From NCBI GenBank assembly GCA_030619765.1, contig JAUXAU010000004.1, positions 5,717-69,716 of the forward strand: a DNA stretch of 64,000 nt, written 5' to 3'. Both the position numbers and the translations under genes were made by a program. Every line of letters starts with the position of its first letter. Positions within the stretch are counted from its first letter, which is position 1. The notes below the pieces were generated by a model. It was not told the origin of the DNA, made no database searches, and was given only the letters and a program-made list of their open reading frames with translations. This document shows positions 1,266-17,854 of the stretch, piece by piece. This DNA is from Thermoplasmatota archaeon. Lineage in GTDB: Archaea > Thermoplasmatota > E2 > DHVEG-1.

Positions 1266-1590
1266 ACTACCCAGTATTCCCGGTCACAATTATAAAAATT
1301 TTTTGTAAAAAGATAGACACATTTGTTACATTATCACATTAATTTCGTTCTTATACTACAATATTAAGGGAAAGGAAAAGAAAGAATAACGTTTTAAACA
1401 TACGGTAGAGAGGTACATGAAAATTACAGGTAAAATTGGCTCGTGTAATTCTCCATAAAAAGATATTGTGGAAGAATGAAAAAAGTTTAAGCAAAAATAT
1501 AAGGGTTAAAGACTTGTTTTTTAGCTTGCAACTACTGTTTTTTCCCACGTGACTTAGCGATTGACATAAGAAAATTACAAGATAGAAATA

Positions 1591-3003
1591 TTAATTTATC
1601 ATAGCATTTTTAATGCATCCTGGATCAGGAGCTAAATAATTTCCTGTGTATCCATATGCCCGCGCTCGGCATCCTCCGCAGTAGTATCGGTAGTCACATT
1701 TACTGCAATTTCCTTCTAATATATCTTTATTTCTTAAATCCTTAAGGATAGGGTTATTTATCCATAAATCCTCAAAATCATCCTCTTTTATATTTTCTAC
1801 AGTAGGAGGAAAAAACACACATGGTTCAATATTGCCATTTGGTCGTATAGCACAGTAAAACCTTCCACATCCACAGCCACCAATAAACTCAGCAAGGTTT
1901 ACAAGTTTCTCAGAGAGAGATGGGTTTGCAAAATGAGTAGGAACTGTTTTTTCGTTTTTACCAACTTCTGCTTCTAATGCAACCCTGGCGAATTGTGGAG
2001 CGGTTGAAAGCACATTTACCTTTCCACCGCCTTTTAATTTCTGCCATAAATCATTAAGTACTTTCTCTCTCTCAGAAGGAGTTAGATCGTTTTTTGCAAT
2101 AAACTCTCCTCTCCCAGTTGGTACAAAGTTATAGAGCATAAACCAGTTAACACCAAATTCTTCACACAAATCTATAATCCTAGGAATTTCCTCGTAATTG
2201 TATTTAGTTGCAGTGGTAGCAATATTAACAAAAAAACCTTCATTCACACAGTTTTTAATTCCCTGTACAGTTTTTTCATATACTCCGTTTATGCCTCTAA
2301 AGCTATCATGGGTCTCTGCAGTTGCACCATCAAGACTGATCTGAGTAAACCGAATACCTGCTTCTTTCATTTCCCGTGCTTTTTCTTTTGTAATTAAAGT
2401 TGCATTAGTTGCAACAGCCACATATATTCCCTTATCATAGGCATATTTCGTTAATTTAAAAATATCTTTTCGTACTAACGGTTCTCCACCAGAAAACGCG
2501 ATAATGGATACTGAAGCACGGTCAAGTTTGTCAATAACCTGTTTAGCCTCCTCAGTTGTCAACTCATCTTCAAGAGATTTTCCTGCACTAGCATAACAAT
2601 GCTTGCATTTTAGATTGCAGGCATACGTGATATCCCAAACAACAAGAAATGGAGCACCAGAAATAAACGGTCGTTGTATGCCAAAATGTGCTATTCCAGT
2701 AAGTACGTTAGCAAGTCCTTTTCTCCAAGATGGATGTTTAAATTGATCTTTAAATACTTTTGAATCTACGCCAAATGCTTTACTGCCAGTTTTTAAAATG
2801 CCACGAATAGTTTTTTCAGCGAGTTTACATTTAAAGCACGCATCTTTTCTAACACCGGTATATAATTCCAAAGCAACTTCTATGCGGCTTTTACTACAGG
2901 TCTCACAATATCCAAATCCAGTTAGGAGTTTTCGAGTGATAGGATTGGCAATAGTTGATTTCAATATCTGGATGGTAGCTGTAGTTTTCAGATACCTCAC
3001 CAC
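1591..3003 (-). CDS. radical SAM protein with a C-terminal SPASM-like Cys-rich domain
   Basis: CNLKCKHC (CxxxCxxC) cluster; 'SGGEPL'; C-terminal 'GGCGCGRFYCAIRPNGNIEPC' and 'CSKCDYRYYCGGC'. Confidence 0.75.
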   Translation of the reverse strand: MVRYLKTTATIQILKSTIANPITRKLLTGFGYCETCSKSRIEVALELYTGVRKDACFKCKLAEKTIRGILKTGSKAFGVDSKVFKDQFKHPSWRKGLANVLTGIAHFGIQRPFISGAPFLVVWDITYACNLKCKHCYASAGKSLEDELTTEEAKQVIDKLDRASVSIIAFSGGEPLVRKDIFKLTKYAYDKGIYVAVATNATLITKEKAREMKEAGIRFTQISLDGATAETHDSFRGINGVYEKTVQGIKNCVNEGFFVNIATTATKYNYEEIPRIIDLCEEFGVNWFMLYNFVPTGRGEFIAKNDLTPSEREKVLNDLWQKLKGGGKVNVLSTAPQFARVALEAEVGKNEKTVPTHFANPSLSEKLVNLAEFIGGCGCGRFYCAIRPNGNIEPCVFFPPTVENIKEDDFEDLWINNPILKDLRNKDILEGNCSKCDYRYYCGGCRARAYGYTGNYLAPDPGCIKNAMIN

Positions 3004-3261
3004 AATTTGATTGGCGTAAATTAATTCAATCTATTTCTTTACAAGCCATAATTTCGAAATATTTAATTCTTTAAAAACATATCCAAATAAATTCTACTTT
3101 TCTTATTTATTAGACTATTATTAGACTAAACAATATGGATCTAGTCCAAATTGATTCCAACAACATAGGTTTAAATGGATTTTTGAGGACCGAGAAAAAT
3201 GACTATGTGAGAACTGCACAGGAAAATCAAAATCGAGGGAAATGAAAATCAACATAAAATT

Positions 3262-3392
3262 CCTTTTAGATGCTGGTATGGGCTTAGCCAGCAGTGCGAA
3301 CTCCAACAGGAGAAAATTTGTTGGGTCAAAGCCCGATTTTTGACCAACTTGAAAATTGGTTCGTACTCACTAAACTCTTTTTTTCTTTTTTT
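3262..3392 (+). repeat. copy A of a diverged ~130-bp direct repeat ending in an oligo-T tract
   Basis: About 75-80% identical to 7101..7231 (shared blocks ggcttagcc, caacttga.aat.ggttc.tactcactaa, and a T-run). Confidence 0.6.
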
Positions 3393-3669
3393 GCGCCAGA
3401 TATTTTCGATTTTGTTCGGCCCAATACTTTTCCATATCACAGAGTATCTGTTTTTTATTCACTGAAGGATCGTTTGGTTCATATGCGAAACAAAGGAACA
3501 TTTCTCCCTTTCGAATCTCTTCCATCTGATCCATACGATTAAGCAGACAAGGTACTTCTTCATTTGCATCATTATTTTTCAGACATGAACTACATAACGC
3601 GGGTAACGGAACGGTGAGGGGGTCGATTTCTTTTCCATCATCTGAAAAATATCCTTCTTTTAAACTCAT
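3370..3669 (-). CDS. hypothetical Cys-containing small protein
   Basis: ORF track; CSSC and scattered Cys residues; no family recognised. Confidence 0.3.
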   Translation of the reverse strand: MSLKEGYFSDDGKEIDPLTVPLPALCSSCLKNNDANEEVPCLLNRMDQMEEIRKGEMFLCFAYEPNDPSVNKKQILCDMEKYWAEQNRKYLAQKKKKRV

Positions 3670-3842
3670 GGCCTCCTCCTTTATGATTATGAAAAACTTC
3701 TTTTGAATATTTTATATTTGATATAGAATCACCATAATTTATCTTTACTGGTCGTTCGTAAAGTAAGACGATCTTCAAGACCGAACGCATTAAATTAAAT
3801 GTTAATAAAGATTAAAGCTTAACACATGTTTATCTTTTAAAG

Positions 3843-4346
3843 ATGAATCAAACAGAGGTAAAGATTGTTCGTAGTGCAAAAAGAAAAAAGACCATTCAAG
3901 CGAAAATGGTGAATGGTAAACTCTGGATCTATCTCCCTAGTGGTATGACAAAGGCGGAGGAACAAAAATGGATTGAACAAATGAGTAAAAAGTTTGATAA
4001 AAGGAAACGGAGCAAGAAACTAAATAATAATGAAACGGTACAGAAACGTGCTCAACAATTCAACAAACAATATTTTAATGGCGATTTAGATTTTGATATA
4101 AAGTATGTAACAAATCAAACATCAAAGTTTGGGAGTTGTACTCCTCAAACGAAGATGATACGGCTCTCTGATCGCATTGCTGATATGCCCCGATGGGTGC
4201 AAGATTATGTTATCATCCATGAGCTTGCTCATCTTATCCATCCAAATCATTCGAAGAAATTCTGGGAAAAAGTATATCAATATAAATACACGGAACGGGC
4301 AAAGGGATATCTCATCGCGGTTGGTATGGACTCAGATGAGGAGTAA
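3843..4346 (+). CDS. DUF45/YgjP-like metal-dependent hydrolase (HExxH)
   Basis: 'YVIIHELAHLIHPNHSKKFWEKV' zinc-hydrolase motif. Confidence 0.6.
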   Translation: MNQTEVKIVRSAKRKKTIQAKMVNGKLWIYLPSGMTKAEEQKWIEQMSKKFDKRKRSKKLNNNETVQKRAQQFNKQYFNGDLDFDIKYVTNQTSKFGSCTPQTKMIRLSDRIADMPRWVQDYVIIHELAHLIHPNHSKKFWEKVYQYKYTERAKGYLIAVGMDSDEE

Positions 4347-4382
4347 AAAATGTAAAGATTTAGTGTTAAGGAGCGTGTATGA

Positions 4383-4964
4383 ATGAAAAAAGATTTCAAA
4401 CAAGTATATCAGTTTAAAATTACTCTGAAAAATACCAAACCCTCCGTGTGGCGACGGATACAGGTTCCAGATACATATACGTTTTGGGATCTTCATGTCG
4501 CGATTCAAGACGCAATGGGCTGGGAAGATGCACATCTTCATGAGTTTAAAATACGACAATCAACTCTAAAGAGAAAGACAATATTTAGAATCCCTGATGA
4601 GGATTCTGGTTGGGATATTATAGAAATTCTTCCAGGATGGAAACACAAAATTGCTGACAATTTTTCTATAGATTTTAAAAAAGCAGAATATACTTATGAC
4701 TTTGGTGATGACTGGGAGCACATAATAACACTTGAAAAAATCTTACCTCGTGATAAAGGCGTAAGCTATCCTAGATGTATTCAAGGAAAACGGGCTTGTC
4801 CACCTGAAGACTGCGGTGGAATCTGGGGATATGAAGAGATATGCCAAGGTAAAAGTGAATTTCAGGATTATTACAAGGATTTTGATCCTAAATGTTTTGA
4901 AGCAAATAATGTTCATTTTGACAATCCTGAGAAACGTTGGAAAATAGCATTTGGGCAAAGGTAA
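4383..4964 (+). CDS. plasmid pRiA4b ORF-3-like family protein
   Basis: 'VWRRIQVPDTYTFWDLHVAIQDAMGWEDAHLHEF' matches the family signature. Confidence 0.6.
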   Translation: MKKDFKQVYQFKITLKNTKPSVWRRIQVPDTYTFWDLHVAIQDAMGWEDAHLHEFKIRQSTLKRKTIFRIPDEDSGWDIIEILPGWKHKIADNFSIDFKKAEYTYDFGDDWEHIITLEKILPRDKGVSYPRCIQGKRACPPEDCGGIWGYEEICQGKSEFQDYYKDFDPKCFEANNVHFDNPEKRWKIAFGQR

Positions 4965-5084
4965 CTATTTGTTTTTACTTACCAGATACTATATTGTGAT
5001 AAAAAGTTGGATTATTATATCCACAAAATATGAACAAAAAGTTTACAGATTGCAAACTTAGGATTGATGCATCTCGCTCAATAG

Positions 5085-5627
5085 CTACAAATCTTCTAGG
5101 AGTTTTTTTGCTTCTTCAAAATATTTCTCAATAGGCTGAGGTTCGAAATCAGTTACATCTACTGAAGCATTAATTCGCTTGCCCCACGTTGTTTTTTCAT
5201 GGATATGACCATGAACATTAACAAAACCATTTTCAACATTCTCTAAGGGCCTATGTGACAGAATAAGATTTCCGATGACGATTGTATTAGTATCTGAAAC
5301 AGCGATACCAGATTTTCTGAGACGAGAGATGTTATCATGATTTCCGGGAATTAAAATTATTTCACCCTTAAGTTGGTCTTTAATTATTTTAACCTGATAA
5401 AAGTTTCTTGCTAATGCAAAATCACCCAGATGATACACAATATCCCTCTTAGAAACAACACGATTCCATTTGTGAATCATATAGGCATTCATTTCTTCAG
5501 CAGATTCGAATGGTCGATTACAATATTTGATGATATTTTTATGATAAAAATGATGGTCACCGGTAATATATATCTGTTTTTTTCTAAAAATCAATCTTAA
5601 CTTCTCAAACATACTAATATTGTTCAC
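5085..5627 (-). CDS. calcineurin-like metallophosphoesterase
   Basis: 'YITGDHHFYH', 'GNHD', 'VHGHIH' motifs. Confidence 0.7.
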   Translation of the reverse strand: MNNISMFEKLRLIFRKKQIYITGDHHFYHKNIIKYCNRPFESAEEMNAYMIHKWNRVVSKRDIVYHLGDFALARNFYQVKIIKDQLKGEIILIPGNHDNISRLRKSGIAVSDTNTIVIGNLILSHRPLENVENGFVNVHGHIHEKTTWGKRINASVDVTDFEPQPIEKYFEEAKKLLEDL

Positions 5628-5643
5628 ATGAACGCCTCATCTA

Positions 5644-6447
5644 TTACGATATTAAATTTTCAAATAGATTTTTTATGGTTTCTGCATCGATATCCATCGC
5701 AATTTGTGCTTTTTGAAATACTTCTTTTTCTGATTTTAGCATCCCTTGTAATTTTGTTAAATCTTCAGGGTTTAAATGATTCCGTGATTCACTTTTTATC
5801 TTTTGGAATTTTTTTCCAGAATACCAACCTAATGCATAGATATCACAGATATCTTTTACGAGTTTTTCATCTCGTGTTCTATTTGGGACGCTTTTGATTT
5901 TGGTGGCGAGAAGTATTTCAGGTGTTGGTATCCAAAGGAGTTTATTGAATTCTCTCAGTTCTTTACGGTATTGTTTATCTTTAAAAACTGGTGTGAGTAA
6001 TTGTTCATCTGCCGGTGTAAATCCAAAGACCTCGTGAAAAGAAGGATGTATTTCATCCACTATGGGATCGACATACATGGCGAAGATGTTGTGTGTTGGT
6101 GTTCTTTTTGCTTCTTCAGGAGATAATTCTTTTCCGGTTTCGTAATGTATTTCTTTGTAATATCGAAATCCAAGGGGTTTGAATCCTTCTTTTCTTAGTA
6201 ATGACAATGATTTTGCTATTGTGGTGTTTTTAAGTTGTACTTTGTGAAGATTTTTGTTGATGTGAAATCCAAGATCTATATCTCTTGATCCAAGGTAATT
6301 TCTCCCTTGATCTTTATTGAAGTTATCGTTGGCTGTTAGATAGACTGCCCAGCCGCCGAGTATACAAATTGGTTCATATAGTATGTTAACTATTTGTTTT
6401 AGATATTTGTATGATGTTTTTGTTTCAAATTCACTATATAATGCCAT
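5644..6447 (-). CDS. AbiEii-like nucleotidyltransferase toxin (DUF1814)
   Basis: 'LGGWAVYL...GSRDIDLGF' motif; overlaps the upstream wHTH gene by 14 nt. Confidence 0.55.
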   Translation of the reverse strand: MALYSEFETKTSYKYLKQIVNILYEPICILGGWAVYLTANDNFNKDQGRNYLGSRDIDLGFHINKNLHKVQLKNTTIAKSLSLLRKEGFKPLGFRYYKEIHYETGKELSPEEAKRTPTHNIFAMYVDPIVDEIHPSFHEVFGFTPADEQLLTPVFKDKQYRKELREFNKLLWIPTPEILLATKIKSVPNRTRDEKLVKDICDIYALGWYSGKKFQKIKSESRNHLNPEDLTKLQGMLKSEKEVFQKAQIAMDIDAETIKNLFENLIS

Positions 6448-7030
6448 GATACTCTCTCTCCACCAGCATTTGTGCTGCTTCTATTGCTACTCCTTCTTCT
6501 CTTAACAAATCTAATATCAGTTGTGGTATGGATACTATTCTTAATCCCTCTTTTTTAATATTTGAGTAGAACACATGTTCGTCGTCTAGTAGAAGCCTCA
6601 TATTACCTTTTCCAACAAGTCCTTGTTTAGTGAGAAGTTTATGCCATGATTGAAAATCTTGTTCTTTTATGTAAATATCTACTCGTGAGGGGAATAAATA
6701 GTGTTGTGTCAGTGATTCAGCATGATAGGTTGTGAGGGCGTATTTTAGGTTTGTTTTTTTTAAGAGATCTATGGGATCTTGAATATTGTATTCTCTATAA
6801 AGTGGGTATTTGCTGATTTCTAGCCAGTATGAAAATATGCCTTGTGTATCTTTAACTTTTGTTTTTTCAACAAGGTTTTTTTGTTCTAATGTTCTAAGAA
6901 ATTTGATTACCCAGACATGAGAACAATCTGCTTCTTTTGCAATACGATATATCGATAATGATCCATCGGGATGTTTGAGTAATATTCTGAGTATTCTCTC
7001 ACGTTTTTTGCCTTTCATAATATGTAACAA
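6434..7030 (-). CDS. AbiEi-like antitoxin / wHTH transcriptional regulator
   Basis: N-terminal winged HTH 'ILRILLKHPDGSLSIYRIAKEADCSHVWVIKFLRTLEQKNLVEK'; operonic with the AbiEii-like gene. Confidence 0.5.
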   Translation of the reverse strand: MLHIMKGKKRERILRILLKHPDGSLSIYRIAKEADCSHVWVIKFLRTLEQKNLVEKTKVKDTQGIFSYWLEISKYPLYREYNIQDPIDLLKKTNLKYALTTYHAESLTQHYLFPSRVDIYIKEQDFQSWHKLLTKQGLVGKGNMRLLLDDEHVFYSNIKKEGLRIVSIPQLILDLLREEGVAIEAAQMLVEREYHGII

Positions 7031-7100
7031 TAAGAACTATTATTTAAACTTTACTTACATGTAACTAAAAATGATATTATATAAACATTACTTACATATT

Positions 7101-7231
7101 TCTCCTAGAAAGTATAGTAGGCTTAGCCGGATATGTAAAGTCCGACAGGAGGAAAAAAGTTGGGTTGAAAGCCGAATTTGGCTCAACTTGACAATCGGTT
7201 CTTACTCACTAATCCTCTTCTTTCTTTTTTT
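7101..7231 (+). repeat. copy B of the diverged ~130-bp direct repeat ending in an oligo-T tract
   Basis: Aligns to 3262..3392; lies between the AbiEi start and tRNA-Leu. Confidence 0.6.
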
Positions 7232-7313
7232 GTAAAGAGAAGATTCTATTAATTGTAGTTGCTGAAAATGAAACTCGATTTTTGTTAATAATATTCTTCA
7301 AATCTAGAAAAAG

Positions 7314-7398
7314 TGCAGGGGACGAGATTTGAACTCGCGGACCTCTACAGGACAAGGCCCTCAACCTTGCGCCGTTGACCAGGCTTGGCTACCCCTGC
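7314..7398 (-). tRNA. tRNA-Leu(GAG), class II with a long variable arm
   Basis: Manual fold: acceptor GCAGGGG/CCCCTGC, anticodon stem CAAGG/CCTTG with loop TTGAGGG (anticodon GAG), T-arm GCGAG-TTCAAAT-CTCGT, 85 nt. Confidence 0.85.
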
Positions 7399-7480
7399 AT
7401 AATGAGATAAAATATATGCCTTCCTTTACCGATTTCTTGCAGTAAATAATACTAACTTATTTATCTTTTCGGTTACCAGA

Positions 7481-8014
7481 TTATATGTCATTGAGATTCA
7501 TACCACATATATCGCTTAATTCATTATGCAATTTAATGAGACGTTCCGCAAGTTGTTTCAGTCCTTTTTTTAATGCCTTTTCTACTTCTTTTTCAATTGT
7601 CTGTTTTTTACCTTTATCTATTAGATTATCTGTATGCGCAACAATTTTTTCTTCCAACGTTTTGGGAATATAATCTCTATTGGGTAATCCTAATTTGACA
7701 GCTTCATCTTTAGGGATCCCCGCACCCAAATGTCTCTCGATAATCTGTACAATGCGTTCTGGCAAACCGATTTCTCTTGCAATTTTCGCTCCCTCAATTC
7801 CATGTTTTATTCCATGTGTTTTTGATCTCCCAATATCATGAATGAGAGCACCTGCTTCAACCAGCTCAATATTTGCGTTGGTCTTCCCTGCTATTCGTAC
7901 CGCTAAATCTCTTACCACTTTGCAATGATTGATTACCTCTTCAGAACAGCCATTTTCTCTCAATAATTCAATGCATCTACTGGGGCTTGGAATGTGGGAC
8001 ATGTATTCAATCAC
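7481..8014 (-). CDS. HD-domain phosphohydrolase
   Basis: 'HDIGRSKTHG', 'HTDNLID' motifs. Confidence 0.75.
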   Translation of the reverse strand: MIEYMSHIPSPSRCIELLRENGCSEEVINHCKVVRDLAVRIAGKTNANIELVEAGALIHDIGRSKTHGIKHGIEGAKIAREIGLPERIVQIIERHLGAGIPKDEAVKLGLPNRDYIPKTLEEKIVAHTDNLIDKGKKQTIEKEVEKALKKGLKQLAERLIKLHNELSDICGMNLNDI

Positions 8015-8528
8015 TCTTCTCTTTTTTAGATAAAACCTTTTTTCTTTTATTTGAGGGAATAATTTCTATTTTTCCGTTGAATTGTTCTGTTAGCCATTTT
8101 CCATTTAAATATCTATCAAGAAAAATTGCTAACGCTGCGACTTCTGAATGGGGTTGATTCCCTACCGAAATATTAAAATCGGCGTTCTCATAAAAATATG
8201 GTGGAACTTTTTCAGCTCCTACAATAATAAGAAGATCATCATTTTTATCAATTTTTGATATAGATTTTTTTAGATTGTCTCCATACATTGTGAGATGAAT
8301 TATGGTACCATTCCATTGTTTGATTATTTTTTTAGGATCTGCTCCAGTTTCTATTTGAAAATTTCCGCCGAATTTTTTACATATGGAAGTAATATTTTCT
8401 TTAATCTTTTCGTCTTTTGTAGTAATAATAATTTTATCTGCACCAAAGGCTCTAGCCACCAATGCAACATGAGTTGTTATTCGCTTGTCACGATTTATTC
8501 TATGCCCAATTCTTAAAACAGTAATCAA
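8007..8528 (-). CDS. trm56: tRNA (cytidine56-2'-O)-methyltransferase aTrm56 (SPOUT)
   Basis: N-terminus 'MITVLRIGHRINRDKRITTHVALVARAFGADKIII' is typical of archaeal aTrm56. Confidence 0.6.
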   Translation of the reverse strand: MITVLRIGHRINRDKRITTHVALVARAFGADKIIITTKDEKIKENITSICKKFGGNFQIETGADPKKIIKQWNGTIIHLTMYGDNLKKSISKIDKNDDLLIIVGAEKVPPYFYENADFNISVGNQPHSEVAALAIFLDRYLNGKWLTEQFNGKIEIIPSNKRKKVLSKKEKSD

Positions 8529-8597
8529 CGAAACTACCTTCCTTAAATTAGTAAAATATAAAGAATATTAAAAGACTCCTCTGTGTTAAACATAATT

Positions 8598-8984
8598 TTA
8601 TTGTTTTTTCTTTGAAAGCAATCTGTCTACCCTTTTATCTACATCCCGGGACTCGTAAGTTTTTTCAGTATAGTCTATCTTTTTTTTGCCAATATCATCT
8701 ACATTTTTTTCAATTGTATGCGCGCTCTCCCAACTTTTCTGTTTCCATGGTTTTTCATCTGTTTTGGGAGGTGTCGTGCTTTTTTTAGGAGCATCTCCGT
8801 TAGAGTAAAGTGTTTCATGATAATCTGTAACGGGTAATTCTTCAGTTTCGTCAATTGTTTCAGGTTCTGGTTGTAAAACTTCTTTGCTTTCTTGAGCCGT
8901 TATTTCCATTTTCTTGCTGTTCTCCTCTTTCTTTGATTTGGATTTGCCAAACAACTTCCATCTTGCCAAATATGATTCCCCCAT
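8598..8984 (-). CDS. hypothetical Lys/Glu-rich protein
   Basis: ORF track only. Confidence 0.3.
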   Translation of the reverse strand: MGESYLARWKLFGKSKSKKEENSKKMEITAQESKEVLQPEPETIDETEELPVTDYHETLYSNGDAPKKSTTPPKTDEKPWKQKSWESAHTIEKNVDDIGKKKIDYTEKTYESRDVDKRVDRLLSKKKQ

Positions 8985-9123
8985 TATTTGTTTCGTCTAA
9001 ATGGTTAACATAACATTGGTTGATAAATTTTTTCTTTATAAAAATCAGGTAATGTTTTCAAGTTTTTACGAAAAGCATTTATTCGATACTTATAATTCAA
9101 AAATTCAATTATCAGATATTTAT

Positions 9124-9197
9124 GGGCTTATGGTCTAGTGGTTATGACGTCGCCTTCACACGGCGGAGGTCGCCGGTTCAAATCCGGCTAAGCCCAT
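9124..9197 (+). tRNA. tRNA-Val(CAC)
   Basis: Manual fold: acceptor GGGCTTA/TAAGCCC, anticodon loop TTCACAC (CAC), T-arm GCCGG-TTCAAAT-CCGGC, 74 nt. Confidence 0.85.
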
Positions 9198-9402
9198 GCT
9201 ATTTATTAACATGATTATTTAATGGAAGAATAACACCACTTTTCGCCGGTAAAAACGAGTTCAAATCTTGTCTCTTGTATACATACTAATTTTAACATGA
9301 GAAAAACATAGTTATTGTGAAAAGAGATTTAAACTCCAATTTACTGATAAAAATAGAAAAATACCCTTTTACGCACATTCAAATACCAGTTTTTGAAATT
9401 CC

Positions 9403-9819
9403 TTAAATTCCGCAATTATAACATTTTCTATTATGGACACAAAGTACTCCGCCACATTTTGGGCATTTCCATCTTTCCACTTCATTTTCAATGAATTTAC
9501 TAATGCCGTTTTTTTCGATATATTTTAAATTTTCAATCATGCTCATTTCATACTTTGTTATGTACCTTTTATCCAATTTCTTAAGATTTTCGCAGGGAAA
9601 ATCCTCGCATTCAAAACAATATTTGATTTCTTCATTAGATAACTTTTTACAGTCCTTCTTTAGGAAAGCGCATTGTTTATCCCCTAGCCTACAACCTATA
9701 CAAGGGTTTTTTCTCTTTTTACCACCCATCGTATAACCTAAATACCCGATACATATTCTGCAATTCATTCCGCAAGGAGCAATAAGCTCTTGTTTGAAGG
9801 GCTTACTCATTTTTCCCAC
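9403..9819 (-). CDS. Cys-rich DUF3795-like protein with a C-terminal zinc ribbon
   Basis: 'CGMNCRICIGY...CIGCRLG...CFECEDFPCENL...CPKCGG..CYNCG'; start overlaps the upstream gene's stop (ATGA). Confidence 0.45.
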   Translation of the reverse strand: MGKMSKPFKQELIAPCGMNCRICIGYLGYTMGGKKRKNPCIGCRLGDKQCAFLKKDCKKLSNEEIKYCFECEDFPCENLKKLDKRYITKYEMSMIENLKYIEKNGISKFIENEVERWKCPKCGGVLCVHNRKCYNCGI

Positions 9820-10418
9820 CTCTTTAGGAACTTTTCCGCTTTCTTTCTTGTAGCAGGTCTCGTATTCTTTAATTCGTTTCTGACAAAATGGATTATTTTT
9901 TTCTTGTCTTTGAACTCACCAATATATTCCTCAAAAGATAGTATCGCTTTACCCTTGATGATATTTTTACACTCAGAGCTATGATGGGTTTTGTCAATAT
10001 CTACCAATTTGTTAGTGATCTTACCTTGCAAGTGTGGTTTTGCTCTAGCAATTATTCCAGAACGTCCTGCAATATTAGCTGTGTTAATCATGCTCTCATC
10101 TTCAAGGAGACTGTAATACTTGTTGAATATTTTCTCGAACTTGTTTTTTGTGTCAACTCTTGTAAGGTTTGCAATTATCGTCGCGCCAATGACTCTTAAA
10201 AAAGTATTATCATCATCTAAAAGTTTCACAAAAAAATCCCACTCGGGATACAACATTTTGGGTTGTTGTTCACTTACTAACATTAGCACTTTCAAACTCT
10301 TGTATTTAATAACTGCTTTTTCAGAAGAAACGCCTTCTAGCAAATCATCAAGTAATCTCTCATCTTTAACAACTTTCTTAGCAATGCTCTCAGCATCAAC
10401 ATTCTTTTTTTCAATCAT
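9807..10418 (-). CDS. hypothetical helical (HEAT-like) protein
   Basis: ORF track; a degraded copy of its C-terminus (KAKEFLKKWGKYD) sits just upstream at about 10419..10512. Confidence 0.4.
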   Translation of the reverse strand: MIEKKNVDAESIAKKVVKDERLLDDLLEGVSSEKAVIKYKSLKVLMLVSEQQPKMLYPEWDFFVKLLDDDNTFLRVIGATIIANLTRVDTKNKFEKIFNKYYSLLEDESMINTANIAGRSGIIARAKPHLQGKITNKLVDIDKTHHSSECKNIIKGKAILSFEEYIGEFKDKKKIIHFVRNELKNTRPATRKKAEKFLKRWEK

Positions 10419-10551
10419 ATTTACCCCACTTCTTTAGGAACTCCTTTGCCTTCGTTTTTGTCTTCGGGCTCTTGCTCTCTAACTGTCCCTTAACAAATTC
10501 CATTATTTTTCCTTCTCCATTACAATTTCATTTCAACTATCATAAGATGAC

Positions 10552-11190
10552 TTAGACCGTTTTAATTTCTTTATTTCTTACATGAATTAACGTCTTATAA
10601 TATGCAATAAAAAGCAAAATATAAGGAATCAAATCTGATAAAATTGATAAAGTTCGTAGGGAAATATTCCAATAATGAAAACCAAGAACATGCTGCATAG
10701 TCATTGATATCCAATAAATAATCACAAATAAAGAAACACCAACAATAAGTATATTTTTTATCCAGGGAATTAACAGCTTTCTAAGTAGATACAAAGGAAC
10801 AGATAGTATCAACAAAGTCAACAGGACGAAAGGTATTACTGTTGTTATCATGTAGCCATATCCAAACATAGAAATAGGTCCGCTAATAAATGCGGATATC
10901 ACAAGAAACACGATGACAAGCCACAATGTTTTTTCAAGATTGGAGATATGTTCTTTTCCGAACTCATGTCTTCCTTTCCACATCTTGTAAAGTCCTACAA
11001 TAAATAAGACAACACCAACTAAATATAAGAATAAATAAAAACCTGCCAACCAAAATATCGTCTCAGTAAAAGAATCGTTTATATAATAATAAAGGAAAAT
11101 AATCAAAGACATAAAACCCCACCCAACCGCAATAATTGAGGCATAAGTCAAGTACTGTAACCCATTAACAGTTTGTGATTTACTCGCCAT
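10552..11190 (-). CDS. integral membrane protein
   Basis: Multiple hydrophobic segments; preceded by the conserved leader TTGTAGATTTGGAGGAGGAAAAATG. Confidence 0.5.
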   Translation of the reverse strand: MASKSQTVNGLQYLTYASIIAVGWGFMSLIIFLYYYINDSFTETIFWLAGFYLFLYLVGVVLFIVGLYKMWKGRHEFGKEHISNLEKTLWLVIVFLVISAFISGPISMFGYGYMITTVIPFVLLTLLILSVPLYLLRKLLIPWIKNILIVGVSLFVIIYWISMTMQHVLGFHYWNISLRTLSILSDLIPYILLFIAYYKTLIHVRNKEIKTV

Positions 11191-11206
11191 TTTTCCTCCT
11201 CCAAAT

Positions 11207-11602
11207 CTACAATTTCATTTCAACTTTCAATATCTTTTTCATCTGTTCATATTCTTCTTTAGTGATTTCACCTTTAGCGTATCGCTTATTTAAAATATCC
11301 ATGGCTTCATCTGATTTCTTATCGGATGAAATCTCTTCATGAATTTTTTCCTTTAGTTCACTATTTTTGTCCTCTGAAACCACACTTGGTGCAAAAATTC
11401 CAGCAATGCAAAGAATAAAACCTACAATTCCAAAAATATAGCCAAACATTACCATAGCATTTCCAGTTGAACTCATACTTTGATATGTATCAGGTGAAAT
11501 TATATACCATACACTCTGTTGAACCATATTGTTTCCAACAAAATAAAGAATAATTCCAATAATAACCAATAATATTCCTCCTCCCAATACACCGCTTCGC
11601 AT
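11207..11602 (-). CDS. membrane protein with a C-terminal SHOCT domain
   Basis: Two TM segments; C-terminal 'LNKRYAKGEITKEEYEQMKKIL' is SHOCT-like. Confidence 0.55.
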   Translation of the reverse strand: MRSGVLGGGILLVIIGIILYFVGNNMVQQSVWYIISPDTYQSMSSTGNAMVMFGYIFGIVGFILCIAGIFAPSVVSEDKNSELKEKIHEEISSDKKSDEAMDILNKRYAKGEITKEEYEQMKKILKVEMKL

Positions 11603-11647
11603 AATTTTCTTCCTCCAAACTACAATGTCATAACTATCAAGTGATGA

Positions 11648-11770
11648 TTATTCACCTTTCTTTATCTTTTTTCTCTTTTGATAACAAGTAGTACACATTC
11701 CTTTCACTCTGGCTAAATTGTTACACCCAGATACGCTACAGATTTTCCCTCTGTTATCTTGGTATTTCAT
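11648..11770 (-). CDS. 40-aa zinc-ribbon mini-protein (MKYQDNRGKICSVSGCNNLARVKGMCTTCYQKRKKIKKGE)
   Basis: Not in the ORF track (under 60 aa). ATG/stop found by hand; CxxxxC...CxxC; preceded by the ATGAATAACCATC box. Confidence 0.3.
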   Translation of the reverse strand: MKYQDNRGKICSVSGCNNLARVKGMCTTCYQKRKKIKKGE

Positions 11771-11817
11771 TCTTTCTTCAACCCATTAAGAGATGGTTAT
11801 TCATCAATATCGTCATT

Positions 11818-12009
11818 TTATTTTTTACCAAATCCTGATAAATTATTATAAAGTGCTAACACTATACTTGTAACAGCGAAACCATGTCCAGGGAGAGATA
11901 ATGGAGGAATTACTGAAGTACTGCCCACAAAAAATTCAAATCCGTAACAAGCCCAAGCCATGATAAGGCAAAAAACAACACCGACAATTAATTTACCCAT
12001 TTTTTTCAA
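11818..12009 (-). CDS. small membrane protein
   Basis: ORF track; hydrophobic. Confidence 0.35.
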   Translation of the reverse strand: MKKMGKLIVGVVFCLIMAWACYGFEFFVGSTSVIPPLSLPGHGFAVTSIVLALYNNLSGFGKK

Positions 12010-12018
12010 ACTCCTCCC

Positions 12019-12351
12019 TCAAAATGCAATCTCATTTATTATTTTCTTAATTTCTTCTTCATCAATTTCAACATCTATTTGATTAATCTTTAATTTTACA
12101 GCCCTATTCTTCAAGTTATCATACAACCACGTTGCAAAAATAGATGTATTTGTTGCGATATTTCCTTCAACATCCAATGTGAAAATGACCGTGTCTGGCT
12201 CTTCAATTGAAAATTTTTTAAGAGTCAGCTGATAAACCATTGTAGTGTTCCTATAAATATCCCTTTTATCTCCTGAACTTATAGATTTTTTACCTAAAAT
12301 ATCAGTAGTCAACCGCTTATCATATGTATCTACTTCTATATTGATTTTCAT
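12019..12351 (-). CDS. hypothetical protein
   Basis: ORF track. Confidence 0.4.
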   Translation of the reverse strand: MKINIEVDTYDKRLTTDILGKKSISSGDKRDIYRNTTMVYQLTLKKFSIEEPDTVIFTLDVEGNIATNTSIFATWLYDNLKNRAVKLKINQIDVEIDEEEIKKIINEIAF

Positions 12352-12397
12352 CTATATTCCTATCGCAGTTTTTTAAACACCTATTTCTTTATAAACC

Positions 12398-12604
12398 CTA
12401 TTTTCTCTTGATTGCCATCCATATCATACTTGCCGACTCCCTATACGACCTTCTATTATTCACCTCAATATCATAAATGCGTTTCCATGTCCATCCGTTC
12501 CTTTCATACTCATTCTTAATTCCAGGATAGACGTAGAAATACCAGATGAGTGATAGCACAATCACGCCTATTCCTGCAAGGATCTCAATGTAGAGTTCTG
12601 GCAT
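12398..12604 (-). CDS. small membrane protein
   Basis: ORF track; one TM; upstream ATGAATAACCATC box plus an 'ATGGAATTGTAG' mini-ORF. Confidence 0.4.
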   Translation of the reverse strand: MPELYIEILAGIGVIVLSLIWYFYVYPGIKNEYERNGWTWKRIYDIEVNNRRSYRESASMIWMAIKRK

Positions 12605-12673
12605 TTTATCTCCCTGAAACTACAATTCCATAACAACTTCCTGGTAAAAGTCTGTCTTTCAGAGCAGAGATGG

Positions 12674-12868
12674 TTATTCATTTTTTTCCTTCTTTTTCCT
12701 TTTATCTTTATATCTCCAACCATAACCTGGGTATCTCATTGCTTTAAAACCTTTTAAAAATTCGTCAAACTCTTGTGGATTATGGAAACGGATTAATCTT
12801 ACTACTTCCCCTGTTTTTTCATCAAATAACTCAATTACTTCTTTATATTTCGTTCTAACCCAACGCAT
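12674..12868 (-). CDS. hypothetical small basic protein
   Basis: ORF track; upstream conserved box plus an 'ATGAAGTTGTAG' mini-ORF. Confidence 0.4.
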   Translation of the reverse strand: MRWVRTKYKEVIELFDEKTGEVVRLIRFHNPQEFDEFLKGFKAMRYPGYGWRYKDKRKKKEKNE

Positions 12869-12926
12869 TTTCCCTCCGCACCTATCTACAACTTCATAAC
12901 CGCCTTCACCATCAAGAGATGTTTAT

Positions 12927-13230
12927 TCATTTTTTATCTTTTTTCGGCTTTATCTCATTGATATTTTTCCACGCCTTTTCGACACGTTGTCCAAAAGTTG
13001 TCATTCCTTCATCCCTCACTTACAGTTCCATAAACATCAATCGCTTTAAAAAACCAATCCTTGTGTTTTGTGGGAGGATAAAAAGGGATTGAAAATGATT
13101 TATTTTTCCTCAGATTTTTCTTCTTTTTTCGGCTTTATCTCATTGATATTTTTCCACGCCTTTTTGACACGTTGTCCAAAAGTTGTCATTCCATCACCCC
13201 TAACTCACAGTTCCATAAACATCAATCCCT
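12927..13230 (-). repeat. tandem duplication (~110 bp, two copies) encoding 25- and 29-aa peptides MTTFGQRV(E/K)KAWKNINEIKPKK...
   Basis: 12928-13040 and 13098-13230 are near-identical; mini-ORFs 12927..13004 and 13100..13189 with SD-like leaders. Confidence 0.55.
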
Positions 13231-13340
13231 TAATAAAACCAGTGCTTAGTGGAATGATTTCATTTACTCTGTTCAAAGTTTATTGTGAGTTAAACCTCCA
13301 ATTCATATCACGTCCCTTGCACTTTTTATATTTGTGTCTT

Positions 13341-14642
13341 TTAAGGTGTGAGACGTGTTCTATCACGTGGAAACAAAATACATTCTCTGATATTTTTAAT
13401 ATCTAATAGCTCCATCAAAAACCGTTCAATACCAAACCCAAAGCCACCATGTGGAGGCATACCATATTTAAATGCCTTAAGATAAGATTCAAAATCTTCG
13501 GGATTTAAATCACATGCTTTCATTCGCTCTTCCAACAATTTCACATCATGTATGCGCTGACTGCCAGAAGCAATTTCAATACCTTTGCATGCTAAATCAA
13601 AACCACGTGAATATTTATCTCCTTTAGGCATAGTATAAAATGGCTTTGATTCAAGAGGATATTTTGTAATAAAATAAAGCTCTGCACCCTCCTCTTTCAT
13701 AATATCTCCAAGTAAGCGCTCATCATCAGTACCTAAATCCTGACCCCATTCTATACTGGAGTTTCTATCTTGTAATTTGTCTACTACTTTATCATAAACA
13801 ATCCTTGCAAATGGCAACTCTGGAACAGAAATTTTCTTAACCAGAATCTTAAGTTCATTTTTGCAATCGCTTGCTTTTTTCCACATATTGTAGACAAGAT
13901 TTTCTAAAACGTTCATTACTTCCTCTTCATCGTTGATAAATGCCATTTCCAAATCAACAGCAGTTGACTCGTTCAGATGTCTTCGTGTATTGTGTTCTTC
14001 AGCTCTAAAATACCATGCAATTTCATATACTCTATCAAGGCCTGTTGCCATCAAACTTTGTTTATATAACTGAGGAGATTGGGCAAGAAATGCCTCTTTT
14101 TCAAAATATTTTAACTTAAAAACATCTGTTCCACCTTCAGAAGAACTAGCGGTAATCTTTGGAGTATGCACCTCCACAAAATCCTGCGATTGTAGATATT
14201 TATGAACAGCCGCAATTACAGCATTTCTTATGGTAAAGATTGCCTGATTCTTTTGCTTTCTGAGATCAATAAATCTGTTATCTAACCTGGTATCAAAATC
14301 TGCTTCAACCTTGTCAACAACACCTAAAGGCAAGGGGGCTTTAGCAACAGATAAAATTTCTAATCTTTCAGGCAAAATTTCATAGTCGTTTCTTACTTTT
14401 TCATTCTCTTTGCAGATGCCTTTTACAGATATAACCGACTCTCGTGATAAAGATGTTAATTTTTCAAATAATTCAGGATTTTTCTTTTTTAAAACAGTTA
14501 ATTGAAGAGTACCTCTCTTATCACGCAGGATGATAAATGCAATGGATCCAATATTTCGGATATCCTCGATCCAACCCGCTACTGTTATTGATTTGTTGTA
14601 GTCTTTTTTTGTTACATCCTTTGAATAATGACTTCTATACAT
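13341..14642 (-). CDS. aspS: aspartate--tRNA ligase, archaeal type
   Basis: Class II motifs '[14 protein letters not shown]' and '[10 protein letters not shown]', 'QSPQLYKQ', N-terminal OB fold; collinear with archaeal AspRS. Confidence 0.88.
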
Positions 14643-14652
14643 AATAAAAACC

Positions 14653-15405
14653 CTATCGAAACAATGAATTTAGTCTTTTTGAAATAAAAGATATCATTTC
14701 ACTTAGATTTCTTTCATTATCCCACTTTTCAACTAGATTTTTAAGCTCGTTTTTATCGGTATTTTTAAGTTCATTCACCCATCTTTCAATATTTGAAATT
14801 GCACGAGTTACATTATCAACAATTGTAATACTAGCTGTTCTTGCAGTCCTAGAAAGAGGATTCAAATCAATAGCAACAACTGTTTTTCCCATGTTTCTAA
14901 GAGCCTGACATCTATCGCCGTCTTCAAGTGGAACAAGAACAACATCAGCCGAAAAGATTCCCTCCATATCGCACAAAGCACGATCATGCTCTAAACCAGG
15001 AATCTTTGCATCTGCCTTTTGACCATATACATTTTTTGCCCCGTAATTTGACAGTTCTTTTAAAATTTTTTCTATTCGCTTCTTTGTTCTATGGAAAAGA
15101 TTAACTTCAAGTTTCGCTGAAATGGATTCGGTCAAGCTGATGCAATCTTCTGCAACTAAGGAAACGACATTGCCGTTAACCGATATAACAGGGTTCTTTG
15201 CGCATAGCAGTGCTGCTGCTGCAACCTCTTCAGCCATATCTGCTTGTGGTATAGTTTTCTCACCAAGCAAATAATCAAAGGCCTCACCCCTACCATGAGC
15301 TATCAAACCAGTTTCATGAACTATGCCATTTTTCATCGCCTGTGAAATTTTTTCCCGTGTCATTAACGAAGTATAACGCGGATGGTTTTTTGGTATCTTT
15401 TCCAT
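14653..15405 (-). CDS. 4-phosphopantoate--beta-alanine ligase (archaeal phosphopantothenate synthetase, DUF137)
   Basis: 'GLIAHGRGEAFDYLLGE', 'VPLEDGDR', 'DLNPLSRTA' blocks. Confidence 0.55.
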   Translation of the reverse strand: MEKIPKNHPRYTSLMTREKISQAMKNGIVHETGLIAHGRGEAFDYLLGEKTIPQADMAEEVAAAALLCAKNPVISVNGNVVSLVAEDCISLTESISAKLEVNLFHRTKKRIEKILKELSNYGAKNVYGQKADAKIPGLEHDRALCDMEGIFSADVVLVPLEDGDRCQALRNMGKTVVAIDLNPLSRTARTASITIVDNVTRAISNIERWVNELKNTDKNELKNLVEKWDNERNLSEMISFISKRLNSLFR

Positions 15406-15496
15406 AATTTAATAAAAACAATAAAGTGGCATTTTTAAAAGTTATTTGTTGAATCATTGGATAAAAAAAATAAAAAGTATAGTTTGAAACTATACT

Positions 15497-16270
15497 CTAT
15501 CCATACATACTTGGTTGAGGGATCTGACCTGCACCAGATACTATTGGTTTTGCTTGTTTGTGGAATTTCTGTAGTTGTTTTTCGATGCGTTCTGCTTCAT
15601 CATAAAGCGGTGCAACATTTATTTTCACACCAATAAGCGTACCGATAACAGTTATAGCAGATGCAGCAGCTCGAGCATCAGGAAAATTAGGATGTGCCTC
15701 CGCTAGTATTGATATTACATCAACGTTCTCATGTTTTCCTTTATTGAGCAAAACTCCGGAAACACCAGCGATTATGCCATTTTTAAACTGAGGAATATTC
15801 ATCGATTGAAGTAACTGCCGAGCGTTTTCTGTCGATCCAATTGCATACGCATCAACAATATCGTCTTCTTCCTTAGAGGGTTTACCTTCAACAACCATGC
15901 CTTCCGGCGATATCAAAAGCTTACATCCCTTTTTTTTCACCCAATCCATAATTGCATTAGATAAAGAAGTTATCAAGTTAGGTTTTGGTTTGAACTCCGA
16001 GACAAAAACTACAATCTTTTCTCCAGTTTCTAATTTCCCTGCATATATACGAACAGGAGACAAAGGCTCTCCAGTATGAACAACTGAGAGCGTAGGAAAA
16101 TATGGTGAATTTAACGCTCCGACCTGTTTTAAACCTAAAGCATCTATTGAATAATTAGCAACAATAGTGCTGACTAATCCTATAGAAGGGAAACCAGCAA
16201 TTACAATTGCATCACTAAGATCTGTGTCTTCAAAATCAACAATTTCAACATCTTCCAAATGCATCACCAT
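15497..16270 (-). CDS. PAC2-family (proteasome assembly chaperone-like) protein
   Basis: N-terminal 'AIVIAGFPSIGLVSTIVANYSID' glycine-rich loop typical of the PAC2 family. Confidence 0.4.
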   Translation of the reverse strand: MVMHLEDVEIVDFEDTDLSDAIVIAGFPSIGLVSTIVANYSIDALGLKQVGALNSPYFPTLSVVHTGEPLSPVRIYAGKLETGEKIVVFVSEFKPKPNLITSLSNAIMDWVKKKGCKLLISPEGMVVEGKPSKEEDDIVDAYAIGSTENARQLLQSMNIPQFKNGIIAGVSGVLLNKGKHENVDVISILAEAHPNFPDARAAASAITVIGTLIGVKINVAPLYDEAERIEKQLQKFHKQAKPIVSGAGQIPQPSMYG

Positions 16271-16333: not shown

Positions 16334-17803
16334 CTATCCTTTAACCACCCCCAGAGGCAAAAGTTTTGCTACCTTAATAGAAATCCCAGCGCCATGTGTC
16401 ACATCTACAACTTCGCTGACATCTTTGTAAGCATCTGGTGCTTCTTCAGCCATAACCTTCCAGCTAGCTGGATGCACGTATATGCCTTTTCTTTTTAAAT
16501 TATTCTGTATGGCCTCTCCACGCCATCTTTTAACAGCTTGGTGTCTAGACATAACTCTACCAGCACCATGGCATGTAGAGCCAAATGTCTCCTCAGCTTT
16601 TTCTGTTCCTCGAAGAAGGTAACTCTCAGTCCCCATATCTCCAGGAATTAAAACAGGTTGACCAACATCTCTATATTTCAATGGAATTTCGCTTTTTCCT
16701 GGTCCGAATGAGCGGGTTGCACCTTTTCTATGAACATATACCTTTCTTTTTTTACCGTCCACTTCATGCTCTTCAAGTTTAGCGATATTATGACAAATAT
16801 CATAAATAATATGCATATCCAAACTCTCAGCACTTTCGTTAAGTATTTTTTCAAAAGATTCTCTTATCCAGTGGACTATCATTTGTCTATTGCACCAGGC
16901 AAAGTTTGCAGCACAAGCCATACCTTTAAGATAATCCTGTCCCTCCTTTGAATTTACAGGAGCACAAGCAAGTTGCCTATCTGGAAGCCAGATGTTATAT
17001 CTCCTAACGACCTGTTCTAAAACCCTTAAATGATCGGTACAAACCTGATGGCCAAATCCACGAGAACCTGTATGTATCATAACCATTATCTGCCCTTCTT
17101 CGTTTACTCCAAACGTTTTTGCAGCGTCTGAATCATAAATCTTTGCCACTTTTTGTATCTCAAGAAAGTGATTTCCAGCCCCTAAAGAACCCAATTGAGG
17201 AGCACCTCTCTGCTTTGCCTTCTCAGAAACTTTGGAAATGTCAGCATCTTTTAGACATCCGTTTTCCTCTAAAAACTCGACGTCTTCTTCCCATCCATAT
17301 CCATTTTCTACAGCCCATCGAGCTCCTATACATAAAACATCATTCAGTTCCTTTCTGCTAAGTCGAACCTTTGCCTTTGAACCAAGACCAGAGGGGACGT
17401 TTTTAAACATCTCGTCGACAAGAGGTGGTATCTTATTTGCATCTAAATTGCTAACGTGTAAATTTGTTCTAACAAGCCTCACTCCACAGTTGATATCAAA
17501 CCCGACTCCACCTGGAGAAAGAACACCTTCTTCAGCATCAGTAGCAGCAACACCACCGATGGGAAATCCATATCCCCAATGTATATCAGGCATCGCAAGA
17601 GATTTACCAACAATGCCAGGAAGCATTGTTACATTTGCAGCTTGTTCAAGGGCATTATCTTTCCGGATGGAATCAATCATATGGGCACTAGCATAAATAA
17701 CAGCCGAGGTTTTCATTTTTAGATTATTTTTTACCCCTTTATAATTCGAGGGAATCTCGTATCGAAAATCGTCAATTTTATTTAATGGGCCGTTCCAAAA
17801 CAT
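16334..17803 (-). CDS. rtcB: RNA-splicing ligase RtcB
   Basis: 'GAGNHFLEIQ', 'HTGSRGFGHQ', 'CHGAGR' motifs. Confidence 0.9.
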   Translation of the reverse strand: MFWNGPLNKIDDFRYEIPSNYKGVKNNLKMKTSAVIYASAHMIDSIRKDNALEQAANVTMLPGIVGKSLAMPDIHWGYGFPIGGVAATDAEEGVLSPGGVGFDINCGVRLVRTNLHVSNLDANKIPPLVDEMFKNVPSGLGSKAKVRLSRKELNDVLCIGARWAVENGYGWEEDVEFLEENGCLKDADISKVSEKAKQRGAPQLGSLGAGNHFLEIQKVAKIYDSDAAKTFGVNEEGQIMVMIHTGSRGFGHQVCTDHLRVLEQVVRRYNIWLPDRQLACAPVNSKEGQDYLKGMACAANFAWCNRQMIVHWIRESFEKILNESAESLDMHIIYDICHNIAKLEEHEVDGKKRKVYVHRKGATRSFGPGKSEIPLKYRDVGQPVLIPGDMGTESYLLRGTEKAEETFGSTCHGAGRVMSRHQAVKRWRGEAIQNNLKRKGIYVHPASWKVMAEEAPDAYKDVSEVVDVTHGAGISIKVAKLLPLGVVKG

Positions 17804-17854
17804 TATCTATCAAAATGTTAATACAAAAAAGGATTTATAGAGATTATGGAAAAG

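Follow-up and report, generated by a model that had tools for sequence, protein, structure and literature searches.

A 64-kb stretch of contig JAUXAU010000004.1 from an uncultured Thermoplasmatota archaeon (the window) harbors two direct repeats that lie near two tRNA genes and enclose a set of accessory genes; the origin of these repeats is the subject of this study. Copy A (3262..3393) and copy B (7101..7232), both on the plus strand, correspond to each other without gaps over 113 nucleotides (nt) (3281-3393 and 7120-7232; 75% identity; spacing, 3839 nt), and a weaker similarity of ~20 nt extends to the left as far as ~3262 and ~7101, respectively. Each copy terminates in a TCTTTTTTTCTTTTTTTG-type T-run. 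When one copy was compared with the whole window by blastn, the other copy was retrieved with an E value of 1.8e-17 and nothing else comparable was found. A pattern of two conserved blocks matched the two repeat sites only, with 0 matches in 100 shuffles, and a 17-sequence nhmmer profile detected two full copies only in the 64 kb (E values of 2.5e-37 and 2.3e-35). The repeats had been described in an earlier reading made from the letters alone (the sequence-only reading), and they are real. Between them lies the island interior (3394..7100). On the left, beyond copy A, is a radical SAM/SPASM gene with its upstream region (1591..3114, minus strand), and on the right ARAGORN identifies tRNA-Leu(GAG) (7313-7398, minus strand), at a distance of 80 nt from copy B, close to the spacing noted previously, and tRNA-Val(CAC) (9123-9197, plus strand).

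In copy A, a core (ATGGGCTTAGCC, 3278-3289) is followed by an ACAGGAG box (3306-3312), two inverted motif sites (site 1, 3317-3329; inverted site 2, 3341-3355) that together constitute a hairpin, a conserved block (GGTTCGTACTCACTAAAC, 3358-3375), and the T-run (3376-3393). The corresponding features of copy B are the core (GGCTTAGCCGGAT, 7120-7132), ACAGGAG (7145-7151), the motif sites (7157-7169 and 7180-7192), the conserved block (7197-7214), and the T-run (7215-7232). When the 3' end of the window's own tRNA-Val(CAC) is read as its reverse complement, it matches the core of copy A exactly over 12 nt and that of copy B exactly over 13 nt, and in the latter a partial similarity continues deeper into the T-arm. 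Among 1,000 shuffles, an equal score was reached once for copy A and never for copy B. A candidate for a third, decayed tRNA-Val fragment at 3130-3262 was rejected, as its best local match was not significant (296 of 1,000 shuffles). The G+C content of the cassette is not distinguishable from that of its flanks.

The genomic context of the repeats was examined with 80 syntenic loci, which were fetched via the neighboring HD protein; an exact-sequence look-up of the HD protein of the window found it not on record. The closest relatives are metagenome-assembled genomes of Thermoplasmatota, and the host is an A+T-rich archaeon. The gene order tRNA-Val(CAC), one further gene, aTrm56, HD, and tRNA-Leu(GAG) is conserved across the clade. 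In the closest genome, CP070724.1 (L003), the counterpart of 1411-3114, which includes the radical SAM gene with the sequence upstream of it, is 93.6% identical to the window, and the directly adjacent sequence is 94.2% identical, in inverted orientation, to 7305-9197. The fetched L003 locus has nothing that corresponds to the intervening 4.19 kb (3115..7304); there, the radical SAM gene abuts tRNA-Val. This gene, together with its upstream region, represents the original chromosomal neighbor of tRNA-Val at the 3' side. The unoccupied site is also found in L036, with the radical SAM gene directly beside tRNA-Val. (The runs of 100 N in the CP0707xx loci are regular scaffold gaps.) This comparison of presence and absence in relatives had been proposed with the sequence-only reading, and its outcome supports the view that the repeats delimit an accessory insertion.

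The block that matches L003 in reverse (7305..9197) comprises tRNA-Leu(GAG), the HD protein gene, aTrm56 (8007-8528), a 128-amino-acid (aa) open reading frame (ORF), and tRNA-Val(CAC). Farther to the right, 13318-16000, which contains a class II aminoacyl-tRNA synthetase gene (13341-14642) that forms the tRNA-Leu-side flank in L102, has the same orientation as in L004, whereas the tRNA block does not. The flip is limited to the 1.9-kb block from tRNA-Val to tRNA-Leu; one end point coincides with the 3' end of tRNA-Val, and the other is 8 nt beyond the 3' end of tRNA-Leu. Because this block is inverted in this genome, tRNA-Leu is situated 80 nt from copy B and both copies are inverted relative to tRNA-Val. 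The sequence-only reading had placed the cassette next to tRNA-Leu; the target (attachment site attB) is instead the 3' end of tRNA-Val(CAC), which is copied in both repeats, and tRNA-Leu adjoins copy B only through the inversion. At the two inversion junctions, inverted homology was limited to trivial 8-mers by eye, and blastn-short returned only a tRNA-Leu-like fragment. Thermococcales provide examples of inversions that are tied to integrated elements or produced by an integrase (PMC8371274).

Homologs of the repeats are present in ~15 other Thermoplasmatota contigs. With an nhmmer profile based on nothing but the two window copies, full-length homologs were detected in L051, L011, and L050 (E values from 5e-17 to 3e-9), together with partial matches that begin in the 3' end of tRNA-Val at several loci; extended profiles and a pattern scan of metagenomes added L012, L027, L043, L084 to L087, L089, L092, L094/L099, and L101. 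All 10 copies on the nine contigs that also carry tRNA-Val lie 12 to 5701 nt from the 3' end of the tRNA, in direct-repeat orientation, and the copy in L101 is likewise a direct repeat near the tRNA-Val 3' end. In this orientation test, the window copies alone are inverted relative to tRNA-Val. The exact core in the relatives is usually 11 to 14 nt (7 nt in the degenerate copy of L043), and in L012 it is the host's own variant of the tRNA-Val end, TGGGCCAGGCCGG. A mirror-image arm is found directly after an intact tRNA-Val in L012, L023, L026, L039, L043, L050, and L051, the arrangement of a left attachment site (attL). The DNA between copy and tRNA in the relatives is variable cargo, such as a PD-(D/E)XK/Cas4-like nuclease, a DUF488 protein with a SocA/Panacea domain, and ParE. 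The homology of the repeats to attachment (att) sites and their tRNA-Val cores bear out the suggestion that they are att-type remnants.

In L023, L085, and L092, full tyrosine recombinase genes (PF00589) converge on tRNA-Val, with a reading frame that ends inside the tRNA, and L051 keeps a fragment of such a gene. These integrases belong to a family of ~150 metagenome members of 410 to 450 aa with conserved C-terminal tails (…GGK…DC.AK..QSN.FSP…G(L/P)GRI), many of which end in tRNA-encoded GLGRI or GPGRI. One member, P0174, is encoded on L083, a metagenome contig of 10,100 nt that is circular, since its termini overlap by 119 nt. L083 harbors no tRNA gene; it encodes a resolvase, the integrase, and an 870-aa Prim-Pol/PriCT protein. 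Right at the 3' end of its integrase gene, ATGGGCTTAGCCG is followed by a homolog of the window repeats (E value of 4e-22). Two nested, perfectly complementary inverted repeats (GCAACCCAAAGT/ACTTTGGGTTGC and TACTTTGAGTT/AACTCAAAGTA) are centered ≤3 nt from the center of the core. From the layout at the integrase end and the repeat homology, this site, at about 2840-2990 of L083, is the attP of the element, and consists of a left arm that encodes the integrase tail, a core of ~13 bp that is identical to the tRNA-Val 3' end, a right arm, and a T-run. A motif of ~10 nt resembling ACTTTGRGTT occurs in four copies on the two arms, symmetrically around the core, and presumably represents integrase-binding sites. 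In the window copies, the right arm contributes two of these motifs in inverted orientation, and they form the hairpin.

The last ~5 integrase codons lie inside the att core, so that the integrase ORF ends in tRNA sequence once the element is integrated. In L083, the integrase ORF (1616-3091) is ~60 codons longer than its integrated homologs (P0122 and others), as it reads through the right arm; integrated ORFs stop in tRNA-derived sequence (…GLGRI or …GLGRIRTGGLRRVRAMS). This difference may reflect a tail swap, in which one enzyme would be 491 aa long in free L083, with a tail encoded through the right arm, and ~431 aa long when integrated (...GLGRI), and the same enzyme might also have made the micro-inversion in the window; we consider this idea rather unlikely. 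Searches for relatives of the integrase in PLSDB and INPHARED returned only distant Xer-like matches with ≤35% coverage, and a pattern scan of IMG/VR gave 0 matches. This plasmid and integrase family is previously unnamed and as yet absent from curated plasmid and phage collections. A different arrangement is seen in L005, where a tyrosine recombinase ORF of ~296 aa (17753-18676) begins inside tRNA-Val(GAC) and reads downstream, as in SSV-type elements; fragments of this type also occur in L009 and, in L051, just outside the att copy. Therefore, the integrases that use tRNA-Val genes in these archaea come from at least two families that are not related to each other.

The sequence-only reading had considered ancient att remnants, and an attL/attR pair from a single integration, or a single segmental duplication, that diverged in place would indeed leave diverged direct repeats flanking accessory genes. 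However, integration duplicates only the core, which measures 11 to 14 nt in intact relatives, and since only the core (~13 nt) is duplicated, one integration cannot yield a shared arm of ~100 nt. Copies A and B agree in polarity, and each consists of the core, right arm, and T-run, whereas an attL-type site carries the mirror-image arm. The two copies are no closer to each other (75% identity) than each is to the copy in the unrelated contig L087 (76% for copy A and 74% for copy B), and copy B abuts a sequence that is a tRNA trailer in L101. A single event is therefore improbable in our judgment. Both copies are of the attR type, because the ~100 nt that they share correspond to the same attP arm (P') contributed by two related elements. 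In place of a single such pair, we find two attR-type junctions, and these point to successive integrations that brought in the same P' arm.

The order of the integrations can be deduced from the left flank of copy B. The segment 7012..7119 (minus strand) is homologous to the 3' end of tRNA-Val in L101, the trailer, and the promoter of a winged helix-turn-helix (wHTH) gene with GTTACATGTAAGTAA repeats, and represents a former tRNA-Val trailer with the wHTH promoter/operator. In L101, tRNA-Val is followed by 88 nt, the wHTH gene, a gene for a 267-aa protein, an att copy (E value of 5e-23), and a YgjP-like gene; the amino acid identities to the window proteins are 83% for wHTH (window 6434-7030) and 81% for the 267-aa protein. 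From this homology, the core of copy B sits where an earlier 3' end of tRNA-Val was located, and, as the left flank of copy B is the tRNA-Val trailer and promoter of L101, copy B would derive from the later integration and copy A from the older one. We infer that the first element carried, or came to adjoin, the wHTH/267-aa gene pair and left copy A as its attR, and that a second, related element entered the same tRNA and left copy B as its attR, its interior now being gone. The identities among copies A, B, and L087 are consistent with independent origins of the two copies, as is the presence of two tandem copies in L094.

The repeats had alternatively been proposed to be two paralogous small RNA genes, which would be noncoding, read from the plus strand, and end at the oligo-T. 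In favor of this view, nearly all copies retain the oligo-T, which signals termination in archaea, each has the hairpin, and copy A folds somewhat better than shuffled sequences (z = -1.84). For copy B, on the other hand, shuffled sequences fold equally well (z = -0.28); folds of single sequences, computed for both strands, were unconvincing, and Rfam 15 gave no match at the repeats, either at gathering thresholds or at E ≤ 10. In an RNAalifold analysis of 14 sequences, the consensus amounted to -6 kcal/mol with 11 pairs, of which 1 was compensatory, and the stem was conserved in sequence but not covarying. The stem is the inverted motif pair that recurs, mirrored, across the core in attP, and a stem of this kind fits protein-binding sites better than RNA. 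Moreover, the left end of the copies tracks the tRNA-Val sequence of the host, there is no conserved promoter because the upstream flank differs in every genome, and in the free element the T-run stands at the 3' end of the integrase gene, where it is expected as the terminator of that gene. We regard the small RNA explanation as highly improbable. The repeat was also considered as a small protein-coding gene, with one frame (GLS...) open in 5 of 6 copies, and this reading was rejected because the differences between copies A and B are spread evenly over the three codon positions (12/11/9) and it is another frame that is read through in the free element.

A further alternative is that the repeats are nonautonomous elements of ~120 nt, resembling miniature inverted-repeat transposable elements, that were mobilized in trans to the 3' end of tRNA-Val, the cassette being unrelated DNA between them. 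Such elements would be in line with L012, in which two arms stand back to back (82 nt), from tRNA-Val to a duplicated tRNA 3' end, with no interior. L012 is accounted for equally well by deletion of an interior, however, and the window copies do not have terminal inverted repeats at their own ends but consist of one arm and a degenerate trailer. In intact relatives, the arm forms one border of islands of 0.9 to 5.7 kb that contain an integrase. This alternative appears extremely improbable.

Taken together, the repeats are very probably attR-type scars of two successive insertions of integrating plasmids into the 3' end of tRNA-Val(CAC), in a block that was later flipped. In the proposed mechanism, small plasmids with a tyrosine integrase would insert into the 3' end of tRNA-Val(CAC); integration would leave the integrase gene and the left arm beside an intact tRNA (attL), and the far border (attR) would receive the former tRNA 3' end, now continuous with the right arm and T-run. 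A first element would have entered beside the radical SAM gene and left copy A, with the cassette as its surviving interior. A second, related element would then have entered the same tRNA, which would have placed copy B against the old tRNA trailer and the wHTH promoter. Both elements would have lost their integrase and backbone genes, and in a last step the 1.9-kb block from tRNA-Val to tRNA-Leu would have inverted, so that tRNA-Val now lies 1.9 kb away in the opposite orientation.

Several observations weigh against this interpretation. The model leaves 148 nt at 3115-3262 and 72 nt at 7233-7304 unexplained. No integrase or plasmid-backbone remnants, Prim-Pol included, were detected by tblastn within the window, and for this reason the mobility of the island is a matter of historical inference. 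The cassette cargo was not found in other islands, save for the wHTH/267-aa gene pair. This pair adjoins tRNA-Val in three other contigs, two of which, L102 and L103, have no detectable att copies, and part of the cassette may therefore be old resident DNA rather than element cargo. Finally, the inverted position of the window copies relative to tRNA-Val is accounted for only via the inversion, which is itself independently demonstrated.

The island interior contains the following genes. A 99-aa ORF (3370-3669, minus strand) has no family match; its lysine-rich tail (…AQKKKKRV) is encoded by the complement of the T-run of copy A, and its 3' end was probably remodeled by the junction. It is followed by genes for a YgjP-like/DUF45 protein (3843-4346, plus strand; PF01863, E value of 6e-21), PRiA4_ORF3 (4383-4964, plus strand; 8e-54), and a calcineurin-like phosphoesterase (Metallophos; 5085-5627, minus strand; 3e-8). 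The last two genes encode the 267-aa protein, which has a nucleotidyltransferase fold similar to MenT/AbiEii (5644-6447, minus strand), and the 198-aa wHTH protein (6434-7030, minus strand). These profile matches uphold the DUF45, PRiA4_ORF3, and phosphoesterase labels of the sequence-only reading; its AbiEi/AbiEii label does not stand as such, as no AbiE model was matched and the resemblance is at the level of fold only. The 198-aa protein gave weak matches to wHTH models of the HTH_11, MarR, and Csa3 types (E values from 3e-4 to 1e-3) and none to an AbiEi model, and its gene overlaps that of the 267-aa protein by 14 nt. The 267-aa protein matched no model in Pfam (PF08843/AbiE included), PADLOC, or NCBIfam and had no sequence match in the PDB. 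The protein carries a GSxDxD motif and falls into a large unannotated family; NCBI gives one of the members the name AbiEii/AbiGii. Its structural model (predicted local distance difference test score [pLDDT], 93) displays a nucleotidyltransferase fold, and the best PDB matches include the MenT1 toxin (Foldseek E value, 7e-4; probability, 1.0; TM-scores, 0.4 to 0.5). From the weak wHTH matches and the fold-level similarity, "AbiE-like" is a reasonable functional guess and not an established family membership. As in the MenT and AbiEii (DUF1814) toxins with wHTH partners, the 267-aa protein combines a nucleotidyltransferase fold with an upstream gene for a putative wHTH protein, which here overlaps by 14 nt. 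In contrast to AbiEii, it does not have PF08843, and a genuine PF08843 gene stands separately beside the homologous pair in L102. There, and in L103, the region beside tRNA-Val (7498-10804) contains two adjacent two-gene modules, the first composed of a 271-aa gene and the genuine PF08843 AbiEii gene and the second of homologs of the wHTH/267-aa pair. Cargo common to the islands is limited to this pair and to YgjP-like genes of distant relationship. Tandem and palindromic repeats (CTTTCATAATATGTAAC... / GTTACATGTAAGTAA) at 7012-7085, upstream of the wHTH gene, are conserved in L101 and likely serve as an operator for autoregulation of the wHTH/nucleotidyltransferase pair.

Other features of the locus were observed around the tRNA genes. 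With cmscan and Rfam, tRNA-Leu (7313-7398) was not reported at either threshold, yet the ARAGORN call is clean and CP070724.1 shows 94% conservation of the gene. At 9253-9280 on the plus strand, 56 nt past tRNA-Val, the tRNA-Leu(GAG) 3' end recurs in degenerate form (CGAGTTCAAATCTTGTCTCTTGTA, ~20/24 nt by eye), on what was the tRNA-Leu side before the block flipped, and a similar fragment occurs in CP070724.1 ~1.85 kb beyond tRNA-Leu; the fragment at 9253-9280 suggests that tRNA-Leu was also an integration target. The 4.1 kb from tRNA-Val to the class II aminoacyl-tRNA synthetase gene (9198-13317) has no counterpart in L004, where the distance is 1.27 kb, and encodes DUF3795, a SHOCT-domain protein, membrane proteins, and proteins of no known kind. 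This region may be a second island. The close relatives L004 (~2160-2360) and L005 (~8780-8975) have no tRNA-Val(CAC) at the conserved site beside the gene upstream of aTrm56; the tRNA locus is therefore prone to rearrangement across the clade. CP070724.1 (L001/L003) harbors its own diverged direct repeats of ~115 nt beside tRNA-Leu (~10905-11020 and ~12565-12680), an att-like pair that flanks 1.66 kb with a PKD-domain gene and holds the 3' end of a tRNA-Glu(CUC)-like gene, which a scaffold gap partly hides.

The feature described here is a decayed tandem tRNA-gene island, which is of a familiar and expected kind. Earlier work has described integration that leaves the gene intact (pNOB8-type), integration in tandem, and the decay of elements into "captured" islands (PMC8371274). 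As in type II (pNOB8-type, lambda-paradigm) archaeal elements, the recombinase is of the PF00589 type and is encoded beside attP, the target is a tRNA 3' end, the island lies between direct repeats of this end, and the integrase gene is essentially intact after integration. In contrast to those elements, the integrases of this family match only the catalytic domain of Xer/integrase models, far below the cut-offs, and have no close relative in PLSDB or INPHARED. With the SSV-type (type I, "suicidal") elements, the archaeal plasmids or viruses SSV1, pTN3, pT26-2, and TKV, the family shares an attP core in the integrase frame and tRNA targets. Unlike in those elements, the catalytic protein is not split, because the core sits at the very 3' terminus of its gene. 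A true SSV-like Int(C) case in the clade is L005; in the window, no SSV-type int(N) or int(C) fragments were found, and tblastn with the L005-type integrase gave no match. The inversion resembles those associated with TKV2/TKV3 of Thermococcus kodakarensis and with the pTN3 integrase of T. nautili, whose end points also lie at tRNA integration sites (PMC8371274). It differs in that only 1.9 kb are flipped, with no inverted pair of homologous elements and no remaining integrase.

What goes slightly beyond the routine is the att core within the last integrase codons, the symmetric attP with four motifs, and the precise micro-inversion of the tRNA block. If the tail swap does occur, it would parallel, at the C terminus, the gene partition of SSV-type elements and could tip the reaction toward either integration or excision. 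Our results assign the correct target gene, tRNA-Val, and an origin to a puzzling repeat pair, and provide a cautionary example of how a small local inversion can set an att scar beside the wrong tRNA. They record, for an uncultured lineage of Thermoplasmatota, a decayed tandem island whose cargo resembles toxin-antitoxin genes, and tie this island to a family of ~10-kb circular Prim-Pol/integrase plasmids. The attP of this family, with its 13-bp core and four symmetric motifs, is a ready marker with which such islands and their free forms can be found in metagenomes.

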